A stretch of DNA of 64,000 bases from an uncultured Gemmatimonadaceae bacterium (GTDB lineage: Bacteria > Gemmatimonadota > Gemmatimonadetes > Gemmatimonadales > Gemmatimonadaceae), in contig CAWBOC010000009.1 in the NCBI GenBank assembly GCA_963790305.1, positions 640,001 through 704,000 of the forward strand, written 5' to 3'. Below the pieces are notes generated by a model. It had not been told where the DNA came from. It saw only the letters and a list, made by a program, of their open reading frames with translations, and searched no databases. Numbering within the stretch: the first letter of the stretch is position 1; every line of letters begins with the position of its first letter. Shown here in pieces: positions 52,306 to 64,000 of this stretch. Position numbers and translations under genes: made by a program.

Positions 52306-53025
52306 ATGGCGCCGCCCGTTCCCTGGAAGCGGCGCATCACGGCGGCGCTGACCGAGCACCTTCCGCTCAAGCTCGTCGCCATCTTCTTCGCGTTCGTGGT
52401 GTGGCTCGTCGTGAGCGGCGAGCGCCCGACCGAGATGGTGGTGCCGGTGCGCGTGGAGATTGGCGTGGACACATCGGTGACGCTGCGCGGCCCCACGCCG
52501 GAGGTTCGCGCCCTGGTCGTGGGGCGCGGCCGCGATTTAATGAAGCTGTGGGACACCCCGCCGACGATCGCGCAGCGACTCGGCAGCGACGTTCCCGATT
52601 CGCTGGCGATCATGCTCGAGGTGAACAACGTCGAGCTGCCGCCGGGTGTCGCGGGGATCGTGCGCGACGTGCAGCCGCGTAGTCTTCGCCTCCACTTCAA
52701 TGTTCAGACCAAGCGCTTCGTGCCCGTGCGCTCGGCGGTCCGCGTGCGCGCCGATTCCGGATTCCGTATCGCCGGTCCGGTGCAGCTGGAGCCGATTCGG
52801 GTGCAGCTCATCGGCGAGCGCCGCACGGTCCGCTCAATCGATACGGTGGCCACGACGGCGATCGATCTCGTCGTGCGCGATACGACGCCGATGACGGTAC
52901 CGCTCGACACCGCGGGACTCGGCGTGCGCGTGAATCCGTCGTTCGTCCGCGTCCGCGTGCCGGTCACGGCCGTGGAGCCGGCGACCGCGGCGACCGCCGC
53001 GTCAACCAGCCGTCGGCGCCAGTGA
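52306..53025 (+). CDS. YbbR/CdaR-like membrane protein
   Basis: LKLVAIFFAFVVWLVV N-terminal TM helix; YbbR-like beta-rich repeats. Confidence 0.7.
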   Translation: MAPPVPWKRRITAALTEHLPLKLVAIFFAFVVWLVVSGERPTEMVVPVRVEIGVDTSVTLRGPTPEVRALVVGRGRDLMKLWDTPPTIAQRLGSDVPDSLAIMLEVNNVELPPGVAGIVRDVQPRSLRLHFNVQTKRFVPVRSAVRVRADSGFRIAGPVQLEPIRVQLIGERRTVRSIDTVATTAIDLVVRDTTPMTVPLDTAGLGVRVNPSFVRVRVPVTAVEPATAATAASTSRRRQ

Positions 53026-54062
53026 CGCGCATTCTCGGCATCGAGACATCCTGCGATGAGACGTCGGCGGCCGTGGTCGAAGGCACCGGTGATGCAGTCG
53101 AGCAGAAATCGCTGGTGATTCTCTCGCAGGACGTGCACAAGGTCTTCGGCGGCGTGGTGCCCGAGATCGCGTCGCGCGCGCACCTGACGAGCATCGTTCC
53201 CGTGGTGGATCGCGCCTTGTCGGAGGCGAACGTCGGCATCGGCGACATCGACGCGATTGCCGTGACCTATGCGCCGGGGCTCGTGGGAGCGTTGCTCGTC
53301 GGCGTCAGCTACGGGAAGTCGCTCGCGTTCGCGAGCGGGCGCGCGCTCGTGGCGGTGCATCACATGGAAGGGCATCTGTTCGCGACGCAGCTCCAGCATC
53401 CCGGGGCGGTGCCGCCGTTCACGGCGCTGTTGGTGTCGGGTGGCCACACCTTACTCGTCGATGTGGAGGCGTGGGGACGTTATCGCTTGCTGGGTCAGAC
53501 GCGAGACGACGCGGCGGGAGAGGCATTCGACAAGGTGGCGAAGCTGCTCGGCCTTCCCTACCCTGGCGGGCCGCACATCGAGCGGATCTCGAAGGAAGGC
53601 GATCCGTCGCGTCATAGGTTCTCGCGTCCGATGGTGCGGCGCGATCAGCGCGTCGGCGATCCCGACTACTACGATGTCTCCTTTTCCGGGCTCAAGACCG
53701 CCGTGCTCAACGCGACCAAGCGCTCAGATGTGGAGGCCGAGCGTGCCCACATCGCGCGTGGGTTTCAGGACGCCCTCATCGACACGCTGGTGGAAAAGAC
53801 CTACCGGGCAGCGCGCGAGCATGGCCGCACGCGGGTGGTGTTAGGCGGCGGCGTGGCCTGCAACAGGACGCTGGCCGACTCGATGCGCTCGCGCATGGCC
53901 ACGATCGGCGCTGACGTCTTTGCGCCGAGCCCGCGGTTGGCGACGGATAACGCGGCGATGATCGCGCGAGCGGGGCTGTTTCGATATGAGCAAGGTGAGC
54001 GCGCGCCGCTCGACCTCAATGCGTACGCAACTCTTCCCTTACCAGGACTGATCGCCGCATGA
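53022..54062 (+). CDS. tsaD: tRNA N6-threonylcarbamoyladenosine transferase subunit
   Basis: LGIETSCDET, GGVVPEIASRAH, HHMEGH, DDAAGEAFDK and DNAAMI. Confidence 0.97.
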   Translation: MTRILGIETSCDETSAAVVEGTGDAVEQKSLVILSQDVHKVFGGVVPEIASRAHLTSIVPVVDRALSEANVGIGDIDAIAVTYAPGLVGALLVGVSYGKSLAFASGRALVAVHHMEGHLFATQLQHPGAVPPFTALLVSGGHTLLVDVEAWGRYRLLGQTRDDAAGEAFDKVAKLLGLPYPGGPHIERISKEGDPSRHRFSRPMVRRDQRVGDPDYYDVSFSGLKTAVLNATKRSDVEAERAHIARGFQDALIDTLVEKTYRAAREHGRTRVVLGGGVACNRTLADSMRSRMATIGADVFAPSPRLATDNAAMIARAGLFRYEQGERAPLDLNAYATLPLPGLIAA

Positions 54063-54889
54063 CGATCGACCATCGCCCGTTGGCGTACGAGCTCGGGCCC
54101 CTGATGATCACCGGATTCGGGCTGGCGGTGCTGGCCGCGTTCGTCGTGGCGCAGATCGTCGCGCAGAACGAGCTGAAGCGGCGCGGTTACAGTCCCGAGC
54201 CGGTGGGCGACATGATCTTCGCGGCGGTGGTGGGGAGTCTGCTCGGCGCGAAGCTCTATTTCGTGGCGTTGACGGGCGACCTCGACACCCTCTTCAGTCG
54301 TGGCGGCTTCGTGTTCTGGGGTGGGCTCATCGGCGGGATTCTCGCGGTGACGGTGCTGGTGCTGAAGCGGAAGCTTGGATTCTGGCGTATCGCCGACGTC
54401 GCCGGCCTCTCGATCATGCCCGCGTACGCGGTGGGTCGCACCGGATGCTGGGCGGTGGGTGATGACTACGGCCGTCCATGGGAGGGTCCGCTGGCGGTGC
54501 GTTTCCCCGATGGTGCGCCACCGTCGACCGCGCAGAACATGCAGGAGATGTTCGGCATCCCGGTGCCGCCGGATGTGCCGCCTAACACGGTGCTGGCGGT
54601 GCATCCGACGCAGCTCTATGAGGTGACGATGGCCTTCATCCTCTTCCTGATTCTCTGGAGGCTCCGCGATCACAAGCACGCCGAGGGGTGGCTCATGGGC
54701 GTGTATTGTGTGATGGCGGGGGTGGAGCGGTTCATCGTGGAGTTTTTCCGGGCGAAGGATGATCGGTTTTTTGGGGCGTTGACGGTGGCGCAGGTGATCG
54801 CGCTGGTGTTCATCGCGATCGGGGTGACGGTCATGGTGCTGCGGAACCGGGTGACGCCCGAGGCGCGCGGGATCTACGCGACGGCGTGA
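54059..54889 (+). CDS. lgt: Prolipoprotein diacylglyceryl transferase
   Basis: [13 protein letters not shown]...GDDYG, HPTQLYE and RFIVEFFR. Confidence 0.9.
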
Positions 54890-54911
54890 TGCGGGGTGCG
54901 TAGGAGGGGGC

Positions 54912-55922
54912 ATGGAGATGGAGCGGAACGCTGCCATTTCTGAGCGTATGGTGGAGGTTGCGGCGCGCGACCGGCTGATCCCTGCAGCTCGCCGAGTGAT
55001 GCGCACGAAGCATTTCAGCCGGCTGACGGAGGAGGCGTACGTCCGCTGGATCGTGCGGTACGTGCGCTTTCACGGAAGCCGGCATCCACGCACGTTAGGC
55101 GAGCGAGAGGTGCGGGAGTTCCTGTCGCATCTCGCCGCGGACCAGAACGTGGCGGCGAGCACGCAGAGCCAGGCGTTGGCGGCGCTTCTGTTTCTCTACG
55201 TCGAGGTGTTGCGCGATCCGGTGCCCTGGATCGCCGACGTGATTCGGGCGCGGCGTCCGCAGCGCCTGCCAGTGGTGATGACGCGCGAGGAAGTGCGTGG
55301 CGTGCTGGGGAAGATGACCGGTGCGCCGCGCCTGGTCGCGACGCTGCTCTACGGGTCGGGGCTGCGGCTGATGGAGGCGCTACAGCTGCGGGTGAAGGAC
55401 ATCGATTTCGGGATGAGTCAGATCACCGTGCGCGGTGGCAAGGGTGATCGGGACCGGGTAACGATGCTGCCGGCGGCGGTGCGGGCGGGACTCGAGCGCC
55501 ATCTGATCCGGGTGAAGGCGCTGCATGTGCGTGACCTCGCGGCGGGTGCTGGCCGTACGCTTCTTCCTCACGCGTTGGCGTCGAAGTATCCGAACGCGGT
55601 TTCGGAGCTGGGGTGGCAGTGGGTATTCCCTGCGCAGCGAATCGCGGTGGATCCGCGGACGAAGGTGCGCTACCGTCATCATTTACATGAGACGGTGGTG
55701 CAGCGGGAGATGCGGGAGGCGGTGAAGGCGGCGGGTCTAACGAAGCGAGCGACGTGTCACACGTTCCGGCACTCGTTTGCGACGCATTTATTGGAGGATG
55801 GGCACGACATTCGGACAGTGCAGGAGTTGTTGGGTCATCGGAGCGTTGCGACGACGATGATCTACACGCATGTCTTGAATCGTGGGGGGTTGGGAGTGAA
55901 GAGCCCGGCGGATCGGTTGTGA
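54912..55922 (+). CDS. intI: Integron integrase
   Basis: [28 protein letters not shown]; IntI-specific insertion [50 protein letters not shown]. Confidence 0.97.
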
Positions 55923-56104
55923 GGGGTTGGGTGAGGGGTGTTGCGGTCGAATCGGGCGGGCGGAATGGAATGCTACTTTTTCTGTTATTCCATCGCTGCA
56001 CGCCGCGTTAGCGGGTGCAATACTTTGGTACGCAGGGGATAGGGTGGTTGCTGCGTTGCCGCTTACGATTGGGTGTTCCGTACTGAGGACAGCGGCGTCC
56101 GCTT

Positions 56105-56143
56105 CGTTTGTCTCGAAAACTTGCTGCAGAATAGGCGTTATGC
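56105..56143 (+). other. Putative attI site; crossover G/TT at 56137/56138; left boundary approximate
   Basis: GTTATGCCG at 56137 is complementary to the first cassette's R'' (CGGCATAAC, 56598-56606) and is not preceded by an attC body. Confidence 0.75.
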
Positions 56144-56173
56144 CGACAACGGGCCTTTTCACTAAATTGGCTC

Positions 56174-56605
56174 GTGCTCTTCACAATCACGCATCACGGC
56201 GTGCCCATCGGCACCGTTGAGCTCACGCGCGCGGACACTTCCGCTGCAGAGCAGATCGCGTGTGGCGTGTTCCCGCTTCCGGGCTACGCGCCCATCAGCC
56301 CGATCGTGCGCGCAGCAAGTGAGGCGTTACGCAATCTTCTGCCCGCCGGGCCGCCCGCCGATCGCGGGACCGAGCTCGCCGCCGAGCGCGCATTGGGACG
56401 CGGCGCAGAGTTGGGACGCGAGCTCGAGTTGCGTGACGCAACCGGGCTTCTCGTTCCAACGGATTTCATCGAGCTCAGTGAATCGGCGAGGTGGAATCCG
56501 GAGGTCGCCGCGCTCATGAGGTTTAGGCTCTCACACGCCGCGGTACCAGCGCGTCTGCCGCCACGCGAGAGTGGTGGTTCCGATGCAGCGGCGCCTGCGG
56601 CATAA
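56174..56605 (+). CDS. Cassette 1: hypothetical protein
   Basis: ORF fills the cassette; its TAA stop lies within the attC R'' GCATAAC. Confidence 0.7.
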   Translation: MLFTITHHGVPIGTVELTRADTSAAEQIACGVFPLPGYAPISPIVRAASEALRNLLPAGPPADRGTELAAERALGRGAELGRELELRDATGLLVPTDFIELSESARWNPEVAALMRFRLSHAAVPARLPPRESGGSDAAAPAA

Positions 56606-56732
56606 CTAGCTGTTGCAACTGGCAGGCGCGATGTCTATGGTAGCCATCGCGACTGCACCCCTTGAAGTGCAACGAAGGCGCGCTGTGCGCGCCTTCTGGA
56701 AGACCGCCTGCAGTTGAACGCAGGCGTTATGC
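56600..56732 (+). repeat. attC site 1
   Basis: GCATAAC-N5-GTTGCAACTG ... CAGTTGAAC ... GTTATGC. Confidence 0.92.
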
Positions 56733-56748
56733 CTCACAGGATGCTTCC

Positions 56749-57231
56749 GTGAGCTTTGATGTTTTCCTCCAACGGTTTGCGGGCGGCGAATCCGCCGAAG
56801 TGGATCGGCGTCCTGTCCGCGAAGTGCTCAGGTCAGCAAGGCATCGCGGGCCGGATACCTTCGGTTTCTACGTCGTGGCATTTCCTGATGGCGTTGAAGT
56901 GGAGTTCTCAGCAAAAGGTCTCGAATCCAAGGAGTCGTTCACGGGATGCGCGTTCCACTTTCGCGGCTTCGGTGATGCCCTGATGACATTCGTGTTCGAG
57001 GTCGCGCGGGCCGGTGACATGGTCATTATTCCGGCCATGGAAGGCAATCCGCTGGTGTTGCTTTCGGAAGAGCAGCAGACGAGATGTCCCAGCCGACCTT
57101 CGAGAGAAGTCTCACTTAATTGTCGTCCGCTCCGCTTCCGAACTGCGGTAGCGTCCTCCGCCGAGGATTGGAGGGCTGGTCCGCTTATCGCGATCAGGTT
57201 CTTCGACAGTCCAAGCCGGAGTGAGGCATAA
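56749..57231 (+). CDS. Cassette 2: hypothetical protein; 3' end probably frameshifted
   Basis: GTG start MSFDVFLQRF; another frame gives a more protein-like end, GLEGWSAYRDQVLRQ. Confidence 0.62.
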   Translation: MSFDVFLQRFAGGESAEVDRRPVREVLRSARHRGPDTFGFYVVAFPDGVEVEFSAKGLESKESFTGCAFHFRGFGDALMTFVFEVARAGDMVIIPAMEGNPLVLLSEEQQTRCPSRPSREVSLNCRPLRFRTAVASSAEDWRAGPLIAIRFFDSPSRSEA

Positions 57232-57273
57232 CCGACGCCTGAGCGTCGTTGACTCAAGATCGCGGCCCGTGAG

Positions 57274-57408
57274 GCATAACTAGCAACTGCACCTGTCAGG
57301 CGCGACATTCAAGGAAGCCATCGCAGTTCGTGTGCTTCAAGTGCAACGGCAAAGCGCGCTGTCGCGCGCTTTTGAGCAAGCCGCCTGCAGGTGAGCGCAG
57401 CGTTCTGC
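57274..57408 (+). repeat. attC site 2
   Basis: GCATAAC ... CACCTG/CAGGTG ... GTTCTGC. Confidence 0.92.
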
Positions 57409-57421
57409 CGACGACGAACTC

Positions 57422-58216
57422 TTGAGGTCAATTCCGCTTTCAGTACCTCACCCTGGTGTGGTCGAGGACATGGATCTCACGCCAGAGGGCGCTGCCGTCG
57501 CGGTGGTCCGAGTCGGTGACGCGCTCCGCGTCGTGATGCCCGATTGGGACCTGGGCAGCCCGGCTCCCGTAAGGTTCCCCCGCGTTCGCGCGCTCAACCG
57601 TGACCGAGTTCTGCTAGTGGAGACACGGACAGAAAATGATGCCCCGAATGCCTGGATTCTCGACCGGCCCCGTGGCGTCATCGCCCATTTCCTGATGGGC
57701 GATGCCATCGCCGACATTGTCGTCAGCCCACCCTTCATTGCAGTCACCTACTTTGATGAGGCGTACGGCTCCGCCGGACCTGCCGGCGAAGGCGCGTCGT
57801 TCTTCGATTTTGACGGCCATTTCGTCTGGGGCTACCGCGCTCAGTTTGGCCACGAGGCGGTCGATATGATGGACGTCTATGCCGCCTGCGCCGACGAGAC
57901 CGGGTGCCTCTGGTTTTACCCGTACACCGATTTCCCACTCGTGCGACTCGACATTCACGCGCGTGAGCAGCAGATCTTTGAGCCACCAGAGACGTTGCGT
58001 GGCGCTCACGCGCTGAGCATCCGTAACGGTACCGCATACTTCATCGGGCCATACGAGCGCCATGGGGTGGTCTTTGAATGGCCACTAAAAGCACGCGAAG
58101 CACGGCGTCTTTGCACGCTAGAGGCCAGGGTTCGTGGGCTTCCCGGTGGACGGTTCCTCGCCGCCATTGATGGGACGTGGTCCGTCGTTGACGATCTCGC
58201 AGCGAGAGGGGAATAA
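57422..58216 (+). CDS. Cassette 3: hypothetical protein, possibly a beta-propeller; alternative start at ATG 57470
   Basis: ORF fills the cassette; beta-rich repeats (GDAIAD, TYFDE, YPYTDFPLV). Confidence 0.7.
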   Translation: MRSIPLSVPHPGVVEDMDLTPEGAAVAVVRVGDALRVVMPDWDLGSPAPVRFPRVRALNRDRVLLVETRTENDAPNAWILDRPRGVIAHFLMGDAIADIVVSPPFIAVTYFDEAYGSAGPAGEGASFFDFDGHFVWGYRAQFGHEAVDMMDVYAACADETGCLWFYPYTDFPLVRLDIHAREQQIFEPPETLRGAHALSIRNGTAYFIGPYERHGVVFEWPLKAREARRLCTLEARVRGLPGGRFLAAIDGTWSVVDDLAARGE

Positions 58217-58264
58217 CATCGCGTCCGAGGTCTGTGCTCGGCCCTTGCAGACCGCGTACCCGCG

Positions 58265-58395
58265 GCAGAACTAACAGCTGCAACTGTCAGGCGCAATGTC
58301 CAAGGAAGCCATCGCAGTTCGGCCCCTTGAAGTGCAAACCCCACGGCGCGCTAACGCCGCCTTGAGACGCCGCGCAGGTGAACGTAGCGTTCTGC
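58265..58395 (+). repeat. attC site 3
   Basis: GCAGAAC ... GTTCTGC with the same repeat body. Confidence 0.9.
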
Positions 58396-58468
58396 GGACG
58401 ACAGAGTTCCGAGTGACCGAGAGCGTCTTGGCCCGAGTCTCTGGATATGCCCCGACAGTGACCTCGTC

Positions 58469-58828
58469 ATGCCGAGTTCCTCAAACCTTGCCCAACGCGC
58501 TGCCCTTACGGTGGTGGCCGCACTCGCAGTCACTGTTACTCTTCCGTCGCCCGCACACGCACAGCGCGTTGACAGCGTGACGGTGGCACCGGTGCGGTCA
58601 CCGACGATCCAGATCAGGATCCGCGGCAAGGCGCCCACGGATTCCGTCCACATAGACCCCGCAGATATCGAGATCATTGAGATCCTGAAGTCAGATCTCC
58701 CCGCCCGTTACAGCCCGTGGCGGGGATGCGGTCCGATCATTGTGAGGGTGCCGCCCCGTCGGTGGACGCTCGAGTCACTGTTGCGGCTCCAACCGGACAT
58801 TCCGCATCACGACCCGCCGCAGAACTAA
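58469..58828 (+). CDS. Cassette 4: putative secreted protein
   Basis: Signal peptide ending AHA-Q; stop overlaps attC4. Confidence 0.6.
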   Translation: MPSSSNLAQRAALTVVAALAVTVTLPSPAHAQRVDSVTVAPVRSPTIQIRIRGKAPTDSVHIDPADIEIIEILKSDLPARYSPWRGCGPIIVRVPPRRWTLESLLRLQPDIPHHDPPQN

Positions 58829-58956
58829 CCGTTGCAACTGTCAGGCGCGACCGTTAGGGTAGCCATCGCAGTTCGTGTGCTTCAAGTGCAACTGCAAAGC
58901 GCGCTGTCGCGCGCTTTCAAGAACACCGCCTGCAGTTGAACGGTATAGCGTTCTGC
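58819..58956 (+). repeat. attC site 4
   Basis: GCAGAAC ... CAACTG/CAGTTG ... GTTCTGC. Confidence 0.92.
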
Positions 58957-59000
58957 CGAGCACAGGCTCTGTAGCGAAGCGACCCTACATCACCTCTGCT

Positions 59001-59323
59001 ATGACGCGCGTAGAGCAGGAACAAGTCGAGGTATATTCGCGCGATACGAACGCATGGATCGTCCGAACGCCCGGGCGACAGTACCCAGCGCTCGTCGTGC
59101 AGGGCGACTCGTTCGAATACCTTCGTCGCGCTCGCGCAGTCGATTGTTAAGCGGGCTCGAACGTGCGGGTGTGCCGACGATGAACTGGTGGAAGAGAGCC
59201 GAAGAGCTACGCGACCTTCTCTCAGCTCGCCTCTCTCACTATACGACCGCGCTCGGGCAGTACGGCTTCGATGTGCCGTTCGGGCAGCGATACGCATCCA
59301 ACGTAGCGCGTGGTCACCGATAG
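59001..59323 (+). CDS. Cassette 5: DUF6959-like protein, frameshifted
   Basis: EVYSRDTNAWIVRTPGRQYPALVVQGDS in one frame; EELRDLLSARLSHYTTALGQYGFDVPF in another; family name from recall. Confidence 0.6.
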
Positions 59324-59334
59324 CGTTCCCGCCG

Positions 59335-59471
59335 GCAGAACTAACCGTTGCACCTGTCAGGCGCGACGGTTAGGGTAGCCATTGCAGTTCGAGCGCCTTG
59401 AAGTGCAACTGCAAAGCGCGCTGTCGCGCGCTTGCAAGAAGACCGCCTGCAGGTGAACGTAAGCGTTATGC
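59335..59471 (+). repeat. attC site 5
   Basis: GCAGAAC ... GTTATGC. Confidence 0.92.
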
Positions 59472-59490
59472 GACACCCACCTCTCGACTA

Positions 59491-59997
59491 ATGCCACGTT
59501 TGTTCATCGCGCTGGCCACCTTCATTGCAGTAGCCGCCTGCGCGCCACCTGCAACGATTACGGACGCCCCGCGCACCATTCCTTTCCGAGCCGCGCTCGA
59601 GCCGCCTTTCTCCGACTCGGCGCTATTGAGCGGCGAGGTGACCATCCTTCCCGATCGGCTCGAAATCGTTCTGCATCGTCTCGATTACGTGATCCGAAAT
59701 CGGACTGGCACCCGCCCCCCAGACTCCCTTAAAGTCGCTTTGGCGACGGGCGTCCAGCATGCGCGCTGGGATCGTGAAGCGGAAAGTGCGGCCGTCCCGT
59801 TCCTCGACGCATTCCGGGCAATCAGCGACGCGCGCTCACCAGTGCGCTTCGTTATCGCGCGACCGGCCGGGCGCACGCTCGGTCGACGCTGGCTCAGCTT
59901 CCTTTTCACTCTGCACCATCCAGCTCGCGAGGGAGAACCAGCACTCGACGGCTATTATTTTGCGCATACGGATGCTCGGCTCTTCGAGGCTCCATGA
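59491..59997 (+). CDS. Cassette 6: putative lipoprotein
   Basis: MPRLFIALATFIAVAAC lipobox; ORF fills the cassette. Confidence 0.68.
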   Translation: MPRLFIALATFIAVAACAPPATITDAPRTIPFRAALEPPFSDSALLSGEVTILPDRLEIVLHRLDYVIRNRTGTRPPDSLKVALATGVQHARWDREAESAAVPFLDAFRAISDARSPVRFVIARPAGRTLGRRWLSFLFTLHHPAREGEPALDGYYFAHTDARLFEAP

Positions 59998-60023
59998 CCG
60001 CCCGACGGCCCTCAGCGCGTGTC

Positions 60024-60158
60024 GCATAACTAGCTGTTGCACCTGTCAGGCGCGATGTCTAAGGTAGTCATCGCGTTTGATCTCCTTGAAGTGCAACTGC
60101 GAAGGCGGGCGTTGCCCGCCTTCTGGACGATCGCCTGCAGGTGAACGCAGCGTTATAC
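60024..60158 (+). repeat. attC site 6
   Basis: GCATAAC ... GTTATAC. Confidence 0.92.
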
Positions 60159-60173
60159 AGCACGGACATTTCG

Positions 60174-60598
60174 ATGAAGTAGGCGAGACTCGCTCCGCGC
60201 TTCGTTGATCGCCACTGTCTCCTCTTGGCAGCCTGCGCCAACGCCGATGGCGATCGGTTCGCGCGCACGTTCATTACGCGTCTGGCCGCTGGCGACTGCG
60301 CAGCCTTCTCGCATGTCAGCCGGCAGTGAAGTGAGTCGACGCGGTTGGGCCTCGATCGCCGCGATGGGGGAGTCGATTACACCGGGCGAGCTGCGGAGTC
60401 TCCATTTGATCGACGAAGAACACGGCGTCGATTCTCAGGGCGCGTACCGCAGACTGATCTACGAGTTTGCCCGCGTGGGCGGGACGGCTCACGTTGAGCT
60501 ATGGCTCATCGATCACATGGGCAGACATATATCAACACAGTACGCATCCGTCGGCTCCGCAGCGCCGGCGCCGAGAGTTCGAACGTCTCGATGCGGCT
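60174..60598 (+). pseudogene. Cassette 7: disrupted putative lipoprotein (decayed or mis-assembled); boundaries approximate
   Basis: LLLAACANADGDRF lipobox in one frame and GAYRRLIYEF..VELWL in another; ATG 60174 is followed by an early stop. Confidence 0.4.
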
Positions 60599-60734
60599 GT
60601 ATAACTAGCTGTTGCACCTGTCGAGCGCGATGTTTAAGGAAGCCATCACGTTTGAACCCCTTCCGGCGCGTTGCCGCGGGTGAGCGCCCTGCCTTTCGGG
60701 GCAGATCGCTCTGCAGGTGAACGCAGCGTTCTGC
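60599..60734 (+). repeat. attC site 7 (variant central region)
   Basis: GTATAAC ... ctgcctttcggggcag ... GTTCTGC. Confidence 0.9.
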
Positions 60735-60771
60735 GGCTACCAACTCTGGACTCGGCGTATGCTTGCATCGC

Positions 60772-61056
60772 ATGAAGTTCCACTCGCCCCGCCCTAACTT
60801 CATCAAGACCGACGCTGGCTTCAGCGTTGAGGTCTTGGGCCGGACCGGCCTTCGCTATCGGGAAGGACTCCGGAGCGTTTTCGTCGACTCAGAGATTCTC
60901 GCCGGTCCAGCCGGAATCGCAGTATTTCAGAAGTCGATTAGGCGGTGGGGGTTTCCATTCTCTCTGTGGCGCATCGGTCCGGCGCGCCGGACAAAGATCC
61001 TGGAGAACATTCGGGCCGCTTTTCAGTCGGAAGGCATCAACGTCGATGTCGGATAG
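60772..61056 (+). CDS. Cassette 8: small protein, possibly a polymorphic-toxin immunity protein (Imm74-like)
   Basis: GFSVEVLGRTGLRYREG..VDSE..SIRRW..ILENIRAAF; family assignment tentative. Confidence 0.6.
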   Translation: MKFHSPRPNFIKTDAGFSVEVLGRTGLRYREGLRSVFVDSEILAGPAGIAVFQKSIRRWGFPFSLWRIGPARRTKILENIRAAFQSEGINVDVG

Positions 61057-61087
61057 CAGCGCACAGCCCTCAGCATCGCGACCAGCC

Positions 61088-61225
61088 GCAGAACTAACCG
61101 CTGCAACTGTCAGGCGCGATGTCTAGGGTAGCCATCGCAGTTCATCTCCTTCAAGTTCAACGGCAAGGCGCGCATACGCGCGCCTTTAAGAGCGCCGCCT
61201 GCAGTTGAGCGGTATAGCGTTCTGC
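61088..61225 (+). repeat. attC site 8
   Basis: GCAGAAC ... GTTCTGC. Confidence 0.92.
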
Positions 61226-61247
61226 GGACGAAGGGACCCTATGCGTG

Positions 61248-61689
61248 TTACTCGTCGCGGGTCCGAAAGAAGGCAAGGACATACCCGTCGGCATCACTAA
61301 CCTCGAAGCCCCAGAGGCCATCGTCGATGAACGACAGTTCCTTCACGAACGAGGCACCCCGCTGCTTGAACTCCTCGAACAGAGCGTCGGGGTCAAGGGT
61401 ATAGATGTAGGCATCCCAGCGAGCCCATTCGTGCCGGAGGTGGTTGGGACAGGGAAGCACGTCGGGACATGATGGTCTTCAGCATGATGCCGATCCCGTC
61501 CCGGCTCACGTGGCCGTAGTACACGTCGTCGGGCGGACCCTGGAAGTCCAGCTGGAAGCCGAAGCGCTCGATGTAGTGGGCGATCGAGGCCTGCAGGTCC
61601 TTCACGATGAAGAACGGACTGATTGAAGCGAGGTTTCCCCTCGCTCCTTCCGGATTTGCGCGTTGTGAATCGCTCCTGGTTGAGCTCAT
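61248..61689 (-). CDS. Cassette 9: VOC/glyoxalase-bleomycin resistance family protein in reverse orientation; frameshift near 61465
   Basis: ISPFFIVKDLQASIAHY..FGF in one frame; DPDALFEEF..RG and FEVSDADGYVLAF in another. Confidence 0.78.
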
Positions 61690-61946
61690 GGCTGGCACTC
61701 CTGACATTCTGAACGGCAATGTGGGCTGGGGAAACGTGCACGATCCTGGATAGGATCGTATCCGACGTCGTAGCATCTCACAGTGGCTTGATCCAGAGGA
61801 ATGCTCAACCGCCGATCCCGTACTGCTCGAGTGGGCGCTCACCGACGATGAGGCGCTAGCTCAAGAGAGCCGATCGAGTGATCTCGGCGCTAGCCCAGCT
61901 CAAGGGCCGCGACTAGCGACGTCAACTCGAGCTCCACGAAGCCGCC

Positions 61947-62080
61947 GCAGAACTAGCAAATGCAACTGGCACGCGGGATGTCCAAGGAAGTCATCGCAGT
62001 TCGGTGCCTTTGAGTGCAACACCAGGCGCGCTGTCGCGCGCCTTTGAGTCGACCGCGTGCAGTTGAGCGCGGCGTTCTGC
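61947..62080 (+). repeat. attC site 9
   Basis: GCAGAAC ... GTTCTGC. Confidence 0.9.
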
Positions 62081-62302
62081 CGACGCGCAGCCGTCTGTTC
62101 CGCGAACTCCGCTTCAAAGCGATGCTCCGCGAGTGAAGCTTTGTGAATGCGGGTTCGAGCTTATCACGCGACGGTCACGTACGGCTGGGATCGGATCGCT
62201 ACGAAGGGCGCGAGTCCGAACGCGCTTCGCAGCAATACATTGGCGATCGCGCGCAGTGGCGAGTTGGTGGCGCGGGTCGGCGGCGTGGCCAGGAAGGGCG
62301 CG

Positions 62303-62436
62303 GCAGAACCGTAGCACCTGCCGAGCGCGAGTGTTAAGGTAGCCATCACATTTAACCGCCGTCGCACTCGCTGCGACGCGAAGCAACCTGCCCCTTCGGG
62401 GCAGATCGCTCGCAGGTGAACGGTATAGCGTTCTGC
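62303..62436 (+). repeat. attC site 10 (variant centre; shortened R''-L'' spacer)
   Basis: GCAGAAC-c-GTAGCACCTG ... ctgccccttcggggcag ... GTTCTGC. Confidence 0.85.
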
Positions 62437-62452
62437 CGACAGCAGGGCTTCA

Positions 62453-62461
62453 TGCTAGATT
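62453..62461 (+). promoter_or_regulatory. Possible extended -10 promoter for the toxin-antitoxin cassette
   Basis: TGcTAGATT about 50 bp upstream of hicB; TA cassettes usually carry their own promoter. Confidence 0.35.
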
Positions 62462-62513
62462 AAGGCAGTGCAGGCGCAGTTCGATCCCGACGAGCCTATC
62501 GCTCCGAACCAGC

Positions 62514-62720
62514 ATGCATCTCACTCTCGAAGTCGACCGCGAAGAGGATGGCCGGTGGATCGCCGAGGTTCCCGATCTCAAAGGCGTCTTCGCCTACGGG
62601 GCATCGCGCGACGAAGCGATCGCCCACGCCCAAGCGCTCGCCCTCCGCGTCCTCGCCGATCGCCTCGAGCACGGCGAGGCCGGGCCCGATCTGGTCAGCG
62701 TTTCCTTCCGCGCCGCCTAG
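62514..62720 (+). CDS. hicB: Cassette 11: HicB-like antitoxin, short form
   Basis: EEDGRWIAEVPDLKGVFAYGASRDEA. Confidence 0.85.
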   Translation: MHLTLEVDREEDGRWIAEVPDLKGVFAYGASRDEAIAHAQALALRVLADRLEHGEAGPDLVSVSFRAA

Positions 62721-62744
62721 CTCCTTCCATAACGGGCTTCGTTC

Positions 62745-62958
62745 GTGGCCGCCTGGCCTTCGACCCGCGCCCGGGCGTGTGCTCGCCGCGCTCCTCCGCA
62801 TTGGCTGGCGCATCAAGCGCGAAACCGGTTCCCATAAAACCCTCGCGCGCGACGGATGGCCGGACTACGTGTTCGCGTTCCACGAGGGCGACGAGATCGG
62901 GCCGAGGATGCTCTCACGCATCGCCAAGCACACGGGGCTCAAGCCTGAAGATCTCTGA
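62745..62958 (+). CDS. hicA: Cassette 11: HicA-like mRNA interferase toxin; apparent extra G at 62773-62775
   Basis: GTG-AAWPSTRAR joins RVLAALLRIGW...GSHK...FHEGDEIGPRML..IAKHTGL after removing one G. Confidence 0.82.
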
Positions 62959-62965
62959 CCCTGCG

Positions 62966-63103
62966 GCAGAACTACCCGTTGCAACTGTCAGGCGCGATTG
63001 TTAGGGTAGCCATCGCAGTTCGCCTCCTTGAAGGGCAACTGCGAAGGCGCGCTGTGCGCGCCTTCGGAAATGCCGCCTGCAGTTGAACGGGATCGCGTTC
63101 TGC
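62966..63103 (+). repeat. attC site 11
   Basis: GCAGAAC ... GTTCTGC. Confidence 0.92.
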
Positions 63104-63156
63104 AGCCACGTCCCACAACGATAGGTCAGATTTCGCGCTGCCTCACACGACACGAC

Positions 63157-63570
63157 ATGCCCACATCTTCGCAGGGTGACCTTGCGCGAATCGAGGCGCT
63201 CCACGAAGCCGACATGCGCGCGTCGAGGGACGGGGACTATCAGACGCTCCGATCGATAATGTCGGATGATGCCGTGGTGCTACCGCCGGGCGGTCGCCTC
63301 ATTCGTGGCCGCGAAGCGCTCGATCGGAGTTTCGCCGCGATGAGCGCGACGGAGGCACCGACGGAAGTACTTGAGTATCGCTTCGACTGGCAGGAGATCC
63401 GCGTCCTCGGCGACTACGCGTTCGAGTGGGGCTACATTCACGGCAAAGAGCGCCACAAGACCAGCGGAGCGATCAGCTCGGAACTGTACCAGGTCATGCG
63501 CATCCTGCAGCGGCAGCCCGACGGTGCGTGGAAAGTTCACCGAACAATCTGGAACGAGCCAGCGAAGTAG
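63157..63570 (+). CDS. Cassette 12: NTF2/SnoaL-like (DUF4440) protein
   Basis: DDAVVLPPGGRLIRGREAL, GDYAFEWG and ILQRQPDGAWKV. Confidence 0.82.
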   Translation: MPTSSQGDLARIEALHEADMRASRDGDYQTLRSIMSDDAVVLPPGGRLIRGREALDRSFAAMSATEAPTEVLEYRFDWQEIRVLGDYAFEWGYIHGKERHKTSGAISSELYQVMRILQRQPDGAWKVHRTIWNEPAK

Positions 63571-63621
63571 CCTCCGGCACTCAGCGTCACGTATTTTCCC
63601 AAGAGGTTGGGCACGCCGGCT

Positions 63622-63756
63622 GCAGAACTAGCTGTTGCACCTGTCAAGCGCGATGTTTAAGGAAGTCATCACCTTTGAACCCCTTGAAGTGCAACTGCGA
63701 AGGCGAGCTTTGCTCGCCTTCTGAGAAGCCGCCTGCAGGTGAACGCAGCGTTATGC
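63622..63756 (+). repeat. attC site 12
   Basis: GCAGAAC ... CACCTG/CAGGTG ... GTTATGC. Confidence 0.92.
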
Positions 63757-63783
63757 GGGCACGTCACTTCTGACGGAATCGAC

Positions 63784-64000
63784 ATGAGCAGATTCTGGCA
63801 ATACGTCGCCCTGGCTTTCGCGGTCGCCGCGCTTCTGGCATCCGTCTACTTCGGCATCGCCGCCGGCCGATTCCTCAACCCCACCCGCAGTGCTGCTGGT
63901 AAGTCGACGGCCTTCTTTTTTACGCGGAAGATGCCCCAGGATTTCATCGCGCCGGGCTATCGACTTTACACGCGCCACGTGGCCGCACTGGCTGTGGCAG
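63784..64000 (+). CDS. Cassette 13 (partial): hypothetical membrane protein
   Basis: ATG 63784, MSRFWQYVALAFAVAALLASVYFGIAAG TM helix; cut by the window end. Confidence 0.5.
   Translation, partial: MSRFWQYVALAFAVAALLASVYFGIAAGRFLNPTRSAAGKSTAFFFTRKMPQDFIAPGYRLYTRHVAALAVA

Follow-up and report, generated by a model that had tools for sequence, protein, structure and literature searches.

The 64,000-nucleotide stretch analyzed here (the window: positions 640,001 to 704,000 of contig CAWBOC010000009.1, assembly GCA_963790305.1, from an uncultured Gemmatimonadaceae bacterium) ends in an integron, in which an integrase gene, intI (54912-55922, + strand), is followed by an attI site and then by 12 attC sites, all in one direction. 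With high probability the locus belongs to the known class of reverse (inverted-integrase) chromosomal integrons and occupies a fixed position after tsaD-lgt in a single Gemmatimonadaceae genus; its intact integrase likely inserts cassettes at attI, past its own stop codon, by way of folded attC bottom strands with lineage-specific letters. Observation directly establishes the gene order and the core of attI, 26 full attC sites that all point the same way, the R-box matching within cassettes, repositioned cassettes, the site letters, and copies of the attI platform. Orientation alone is not new, since the reverse layout is known and Gemmatimonadota normally have it; less expected are the letters of the sites and the detached platforms. 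Below, G000 is the source genome and C9 its contig with the integron, G001, G003, G004, G006, G007, and G008 are genomes of the same genus, and L numbers denote loci.

The 336-residue intI product scores 449 bits against TIGR02249 (cut-off 265) over profile positions 4-315 and aligns over its full length with VchIntIA (PDB 2A3V, E 1.9e-89). The catalytic residues mapped to IntI1 are all present (R152, K177, H283, R286, H309, and Y318). The gene is the last in a closely spaced run of rpe, a TlpA-like gene, an unnamed open reading frame (ORF), tsaD, and lgt. The order tsaD-lgt-intI recurs in G001, G004, G006, G007, and G008, that is, in five of the eight other genomes of the genus, and in G004 and G006 an attC again lies downstream on the intI strand (lgt-intI-attI-attC). 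A sixth, G003, has the lgt-linked platform and array, with intI missing there. The first-pass annotation, made from sequence alone, had placed an array downstream of and co-directional with a + strand intI, with attI about 215 bp past its stop codon; both statements hold, the attI R box beginning 214 nt after the stop. The principal features are as follows.

53022..54889, + strand: conserved chromosomal flank of tsaD and lgt, with 22 nt between the end of lgt and intI
54912..55922, + strand: intI, integron integrase, 336 aa, with R152, K177, H283, R286, H309, Y318; Gly167 at the position of IntI1 Asp161
55923..56143, + strand: platform module made up of attI and a putative cassette promoter (Pc); further copies in the genome lack intI
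55965..55993, no strand assigned: conserved dyad, 7-N15-7, shared by the four platform copies of this genome and, in degenerate form, by genus relatives; may be a cassette promoter or bind a protein
56018..56031, + strand: second conserved platform block, candidate promoter or accessory site
56126..56143, + strand: attI core, with L box 56126-56132, 4-nt spacer, and R box 56137-56143; predicted crossover 56137/56138

A mis-join between 55922 and 56137, which the first-pass annotation had raised as a danger, is ruled out by the same order in G004 and G006 and by an X8 sequencing-run contig that spans 55792-56139 and so bridges the intI-attI junction, with 16 differences and 4 gaps. The sequencing runs listed included no RNA run, and all 20 DNA runs had small shares. 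A second, divergent intI, also raised there, was not found: tblastn of the 4.3-Mb assembly (94% complete) returned a single intI, and none lies beyond the array on the contiguous 1.02-Mb contig. These results leave very little room for the alternative that the integron is canonical and divergent, with its true intI and attI at the distal end or within a gap, the present intI being an unrelated neighbor or the product of a mis-join. Such a reading could draw on the incompleteness of the assembly and on the absence from this genome of a second IntI lineage found in the genus. It is opposed by the conserved gene order in two relatives, by the junction bridged in another sample, by the unbroken contig, by the bulge position and the genes, which both set + as the top strand, and by the second IntI lineage, which is itself inverted. 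We hold it to be extremely improbable.

The attI site has an R box with a GTT core (GTTATGC) and, 4 nt away, an inverted L box (GCAGAAT), within the 4-5 bp spacing described in PMC12614218 (papers are cited here and below from excerpts). It has no hairpin comparable to that of attC1 (folding z = -1.5, against z = -6.3 for attC1). This end of the platform is conserved in the genus. Over 35 loci the attI consensus is an inverted L box, a 4-nt spacer, and GTTAGGC. In other genera the gap from the intI stop to attI can be as short as 42-70 bp, so that cassettes there are probably transcribed by read-through or from a promoter within intI.

Sites of attC type were detected with a custom hidden Markov model (HMM) and with a structure scanner. 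At a score of at least 14 the scanner gives one match in 400 kb of non-array DNA; it recovered nine of the 12 window sites, with nine matches in the real window array against none in 20 shuffles. Neither method found a match in positions 1-56590. The 12 complete sites found by the HMM all have + as their top strand, are 131-138 bp long, and show R'', L'', L', and R' boxes, extrahelical bases, and hairpin folding. The whole array extends for about 28 kb, reaching about C9:724,000, some 20 kb past the window end, and contains 34 HMM matches, of which 26 are full-length and eight, at the distal end, partial. The bottom strand has the lower folding energy in 21 of the 26 full sites (mean -35.1 versus -33.8 kcal/mol). 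In 23 of 26 sites the R'' box matches the R' box that begins its own cassette, and in only 15 of 26 does it match the R' of the same site. A count of 23 was not attained in any of 100,000 permutations (p < 1e-5), and two of the three mismatches flank the array segment that holds a second attI. Agreement with the cassette start rather than with the same site is the signature of junctions made by an integrase.

The count of at least 13 cassettes in the earlier annotation stands as 12 whole cassettes and a thirteenth broken off at the window end, with 26 full sites array-wide. The sites had also been called homogeneous, and are moderately so, with a mean pairwise identity of 71% (range 51-93%). 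Cassette genes lie broadly on the + strand, as had been claimed of nearly all of them, the exceptions being cassette 9, whose longest ORFs are on the minus strand, and cassettes 7 and 10, which have no clear gene. The array contents within the window are as follows.

56138..56726, + strand: cassette 1, ORF 56174-56605, no Pfam match
56600..56732, + strand: attC1
57274..57408, + strand: attC2; cassette 2, 56727-57402, ORF apparently frameshifted
58265..58395, + strand: attC3; cassette 3, ORF 57422-58216, no Pfam match
58819..58956, + strand: attC4; cassette 4, ORF 58469-58828, no Pfam match
59335..59471, + strand: attC5; cassette 5, DUF6959 over two frames
60024..60158, + strand: attC6; cassette 6, ORF 59491-59997, no Pfam match
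60599..60734, + strand: attC7; cassette 7, no clear gene
61088..61225, + strand: attC8; cassette 8, Imm74 resemblance too weak for the Pfam cut-off
61947..62080, + strand: attC9; cassette 9, in which the minus strand has the longest ORFs
62303..62436, + strand: attC10; cassette 10, short, no ORF
62966..63103, + strand: attC11; cassette 11, toxin-antitoxin pair of a HicB-like gene, 62514-62720 (below cut-off), and a HicA domain ending at 62958
63622..63756, + strand: attC12; cassette 12, DUF4440/SnoaL-like, ORF 63157-63570
63751..64000, + strand: cassette 13, cut by the window end

The description as a sedentary chromosomal integron is borne out. The tsaD-lgt site is kept in five of eight other genomes of the genus, the array passes, with 26 full sites, the threshold of more than 10 attC sites taken from PMC9024848, and the attC family is lineage-specific, occurring in six of the nine genus genomes. 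Cassettes that stand first in the arrays of G003, G004, and G001 have counterparts far inside this array, at 74-79% identity. Of the 76 ORFs given to Pfam, flanks included, few cassette genes could be named: a split DUF6959 gene, HicA together with a weak HicB match, two DUF4440 genes, BrnT, a glyoxalase, DUF2269, an FKBP, an amidohydrolase, and a split PF00144 protein. Cassette genes split between frames occur at 56749-57231, 59001-59323, 61248-61842, 62548-62958, and L031:11851-12922 (DUF6959, the HicA region, the PF00144 protein, and others), and are either pseudogenes or the result of assembly indels.

One could read the same locus as a frozen or nearly frozen array: a real platform whose integrase is now inactive or seldom expressed, followed by an array in decay. 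The eight partial sites at the distal end, the frameshifts in cassettes such as that of DUF6959, the loss of intI from the lgt site in G003, and the lack of any conserved SOS-like dyad upstream of intI in 110 loci of the phylum would all fit. An intact intI reading frame with its full catalytic set would not, nor would the roughly 65 close homologues at 77-98% identity, which are mostly full-length, the R-box matching that runs unbroken over the first 14 cassettes, or the first cassettes that differ among relatives. We judge a frozen array improbable. The named homologues at 80-82% identity carry the labels Gemmatimonadaceae or Gemmatimonadota, and a metagenome scan found distant homologues only (46-66%). 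No SOS-like dyad was shared upstream of intI in the 110 loci, nor one between the lexA and recA leaders, in a search made without a LexA motif specific to the phylum. Two lexA genes score above the family cut-off (G000:C6:334286 and C9:139131), and no operator common to them was found.

The first-pass annotation treated the layout as a minority type, which overrates its rarity; it did not mention the unusual letters of the sites or the attI modules that lack an integrase. IntI scores over the cut-off in 105 of 251 Gemmatimonadota genomes, a tally that takes in the unpublished G015. We surveyed orientation at 125 intI loci, which are the best-scoring matches rather than all. Sixty-four (from 59 genomes, 45 of the loci with at least two sites) are inverted, two scored as canonical, and 59 have no scorable site; at more than half of the latter the contig ends within 1 kb. 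Inverted loci thus make up 64 of the 66 that could be scored. Of the two canonical loci, L149 was dropped as a chance match, having one site and unmatched R boxes, and L137 is a real exception whose IntI falls outside the inverted clade. A further set of 80 named loci of other genomes plus three class 1 controls gave 22 inverted loci, 14 of these outside Gemmatimonadota. In an IQ-TREE phylogeny of 74 scored loci, rooted on IntI1 and including 20 inverted Gemmatimonadota loci (13 of them drawn at random), one clade (Shimodaira-Hasegawa-like approximate likelihood ratio test, SH-aLRT, 92) holds 58 of the 59 inverted loci and none of the 15 canonical ones, and monophyly of all 59 is not rejected by the approximately unbiased test (p-AU 0.70). 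Members of this clade come from Acidobacteriota, Coriobacteriia, Elusimicrobiota, Chlorobiaceae, Bacteroidota, Lentisphaeria, and Eisenbacteria loci as well. The inverted layout is the rule in Gemmatimonadota and characterizes a single large IntI clade that extends across many phyla of soil and freshwater. Gemmatimonadota are among the phyla listed with integrons in PMC8618304, and Ghaly 2021 (PMC8352920) describes inverted IntIs as a sub-clade of a soil/freshwater clade.

The insertion site behind lgt is genus-specific. A single phylum-wide insertion site was considered and rejected, the 110 intI upstream regions falling into 77 clusters. Four genus genomes (L231, L232, L205, and L050) have a second IntI lineage, 56-59% identical, inverted, and with the same attC family. 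In G000 the site syntenic to it, C9:289657, has a small membrane-protein ORF, with intI not present.

Several observations weigh against the favored reading of the locus. The GC skew of the attC core is near 0, not negative as reported for sites of mobile integrons. Frameshifted cassette genes and decayed distal sites imply that current activity may be low, or that the assembly may hold indels. A scan for sigma-70 promoters and terminators over 54500-56800 found nothing above shuffles, so that the putative Pc is proposed from conservation. The IntI trees, rooted on IntI1, contain no Treponema or Vibrio IntI. Loci were retrieved with peptides of this IntI, and the cross-phylum sample is biased towards its clade. 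The inverted group was named by Cury 2016 and found paraphyletic there (PMC4889954).

The attC sites depart from textbook letters in both bulge and core. Across 29 sites of this genome, the first extrahelical base is a top-strand G, hence a C on the recombining strand, in 28, and the C is found in 202 of 207 Gemmatimonadota sites, across three families. The second bulge varies, the top strand having T in 17, G in 7, and A in 5 of the 29 (bottom-strand A in 17 of 29). Our class 1 control matches had the canonical first-bulge letter in six of nine and a C bulge in two of nine. The R'' boxes are GCATAAC in 14, GCAGAAC in 13, and GTATAAC in 2, and the attI L box mirrors the shifted core of the GCAGAAC type. 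The sites therefore fall outside the attC consensus GTTRRRY/RYYYAAC with a bottom-strand first G, a consensus that is usual and not absolute; since the GTT and AAC triplets are kept, we regard this as a variant integron and not as a non-member. In the rest of the phylum GTTAGGC is the commonest R' box (94 of 195), whereas the cores of this genus are GTT(A/C)TGC. Within the attC family of the genus, an R'' box matching GTTAGGC occurs twice against 68 shifted cores, both times on first cassettes of the second integron.

It is likely that this departure reflects an integrase tuned to its own sites. The rival is neutral drift of an attC family, with no tuned integrase and only a coincidental link to a genome-wide word described below, and on this we find the evidence evenly balanced. 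Bouvier 2009 (PMC2727003) describes the first extrahelical base as "almost exclusively a G" and reports that a change from G to C lowers integration by IntI1 only 2.7-fold, which favors drift; in Demarre 2007 (PMC2095811), complementing all three bulges of the Vibrio cholerae repeat took IntI1 from about 1e-1 to 3.8e-5, which speaks against it, and D161G was selected as a rescue. At the D161 position Gly is present in this IntI and in 58 of its 65 scored close homologues. That residue is found, however, in 9 of 61 C-bulge Gemmatimonadota loci versus 4 of 16 other loci with a G bulge, and shows no link to the second bulge, so a general role as partner of the C bulge is unsupported; the second IntI lineage of the genus has Ala or His there and yet the same attC family. 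Drift would further agree with the C bulge in two of nine class 1 control matches and in the canonical Verrucomicrobiae array L069 (8 of 9 sites), with the second integron, two of whose first cassettes have the GTTAGGC core, and with the coincidence of core shift and word excess in a single genus, which counts as one evolutionary event. Tuning is favored by a first-bulge base that is constant in 202 of 207 sites while the second is free to vary, and by the attI L box that mirrors the shifted core.

The C bulge is not a product of the inverted layout. It is present in the canonical arrays L069, L079, and L286 (Verrucomicrobiae, Blastocatellia, and a metagenome), and a G bulge is present in inverted L093, L102, and L123; the letter is thus not tied to inversion. 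A bottom-strand A bulge occurs in Elusimicrobiota and Eisenbacteria loci (L072, L077). The top association with the bulge letter is at integrase residue 162, which is K in 82 of 85 C-bulge loci and Q in 8 of 15 G-bulge loci. We set it aside as a determinant: related loci are not independent data points, and IntI1 combines K with sites of the G-bulge type. The equivalent residue of VchIntIA presumably touches the bulge. This contact was not found in the excerpted text of PMC2095811.

The word CGTTAGGC, to which the GTTAGGC core corresponds, occurs 855 times in this genome, 19-fold over Markov expectation, and 382-1006 times in each of the nine genus genomes versus 5-177 in 54 others. Other enriched words are CGTTATGC (7-fold), CGTTAGGT (7-fold), and the unrelated GCTAGAGG (15-fold). 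A shift of the core in avoidance of off-target sites is possible, on the evidence of one genus, and the enrichment of CGTTATGC itself argues against simple avoidance. Our literature search, which left subscription papers mostly and supplements outside it, found no paper dealing with integron orientation or with the letters of the sites in Gemmatimonadota; such cases may be present in the IntegronFinder tables or in Figure S1 of Bouvier.

Copies of the platform module recur without intI. One, at C9:706903-707100 (86%), lies inside the array behind a tRNA-Asn-like 3' fragment; another, at C7:273902-274082 (74%), lies behind a DUF4175-like gene and is followed by a cassette and attC; a third, C8:12578-12644, is partial. 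G004 has two more and G001 one, with no intI in the stretches retrieved. In G003 the integron is split (L344, L039), with lgt, platform, and array lacking intI and the orthologous intI at another locus. The dyad, the second block, and the attI core, common to platform copies, are the best candidates for Pc and accessory sites. Our search of the literature, supplements not covered, did not find a promoter-attI module recurring without intI described. The in-array unit, G000:C9:706691-707100 (L031:3191-3600), resembles an attI-bounded cassette, and its tRNA-Asn-like fragment is 82% identical over 40 nt to a tRNA-Asn on C1. Integrase-less attC clusters of the same family lie at G000:C7:273825-274533 and C8:5984-27295 (L035, L033, L034). 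The first has a full platform; the second has three full and five partial sites and a fragment comprising the end of a DUF4175-like gene and half a platform.

By analogy with class 1 and Vibrio integrons, a single-stranded attC would recombine with a double-stranded attI, followed by replicative resolution. The attC bottom strand would be the one recombined, the choice of strand being set by bulge position on the R''-L'' arm and not by bulge identity. Cassettes may be expressed from a promoter in the 214-bp intI-attI module, perhaps with read-through from the tsaD-lgt-intI run, and satellite attI sites could be served in trans by the integrase. The platform module lies clear of intI and can therefore be copied on its own. 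A wider proposal, which we put forward as doubtful, is a distinct Gemmatimonadota integron dialect. In it, IntI would read C-bulged attC sites, the core would have moved in this genus from GTTAGGC to GTT(A/C)TGC because the genome is full of the old core word (off-target sites), the reverse layout would free the promoter-attI module to form satellites served in trans by one IntI, and the D161G change selected in the laboratory would have its natural form in Gly167.

Among known systems, the closest in layout is the Treponema denticola type, in which intI is transcribed towards attI (PMC3607928), cassettes are co-directional, and attI lies about 200 bp past the intI stop (PMC3607928; PMC4889954; PMC8352920). 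In the excerpted text of a Treponema study (10.1101/2020.05.09.085589), Pc lies between intI and the first cassette, where we place the putative Pc here, and no LexA box was detected upstream of intI; none was found here. The Gemmatimonadaceae element differs in phylum, in the position of intI 22 nt after lgt, in its GTT(A/C)TGC cores, and in its intI-less platform copies. Within the phylum, Gemmatirosa kalamazoonensis KBS708 (NZ_CP007129, a 1.1-Mb replicon) has an inverted integron with an IntI 60% identical and 15 inverted attC sites within 8 kb, with a C bulge in 15 of 15, as here; its sites are about 96 bp, its cores are of GTTRRRY type, and its insertion site is another. It is mentioned for its large size in PMC9024848, in excerpted text that is silent on orientation and bulge. 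VchIntIA and IntI1 (51% identity to the latter) share the fold and catalytic residues. The Vibrio cholerae and class 1 integrons also have long attC sites (131-140 bp here) with R and L boxes, two bulges, and a branched terminal structure, and toxin-antitoxin cassettes (here HicAB and BrnT). They differ in being divergent and in having GTTRRRY cores and, on the bottom strand, G and T as the bulges. In the present array C and mostly A take these places, and GCAGAAC, which does not fit RYYYAAC, makes up 13 of 29 R'' boxes. The detached platforms recall attI-type (delta-attI) cassettes (PMC12901181), which are attI-bounded units in arrays, and clusters of attC sites lacking integrases (CALINs; PMC4889954). 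Unlike these, a whole 200-bp promoter-attI module recurs here, also unlinked, and array and intI are parted in one relative.

A major soil phylum uses reverse integrons nearly without exception and breaks two "near-universal" attC rules, which bears on cassette exchange between soil and clinical integrases and on detection of such arrays by attC models trained on Proteobacteria. It offers a test case for attC-integrase co-evolution, since the cultured Gemmatirosa shares layout and bulge and the present IntI naturally has a laboratory-selected residue. Integrase-less attI platforms would explain some CALINs without decay.

Two minor observations follow. The tRNA-Asn at G000:C1:101370-101444 has a partial 3' duplicate at 106778-106818, 5.4 kb downstream, as an integrated island would leave. 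A short cassette of this array without an ORF, G000:C9:709192-709591, is the first behind attI in G004 and the first behind a satellite platform in G001 (L003; L343), and may be a carrier of a promoter or an RNA.

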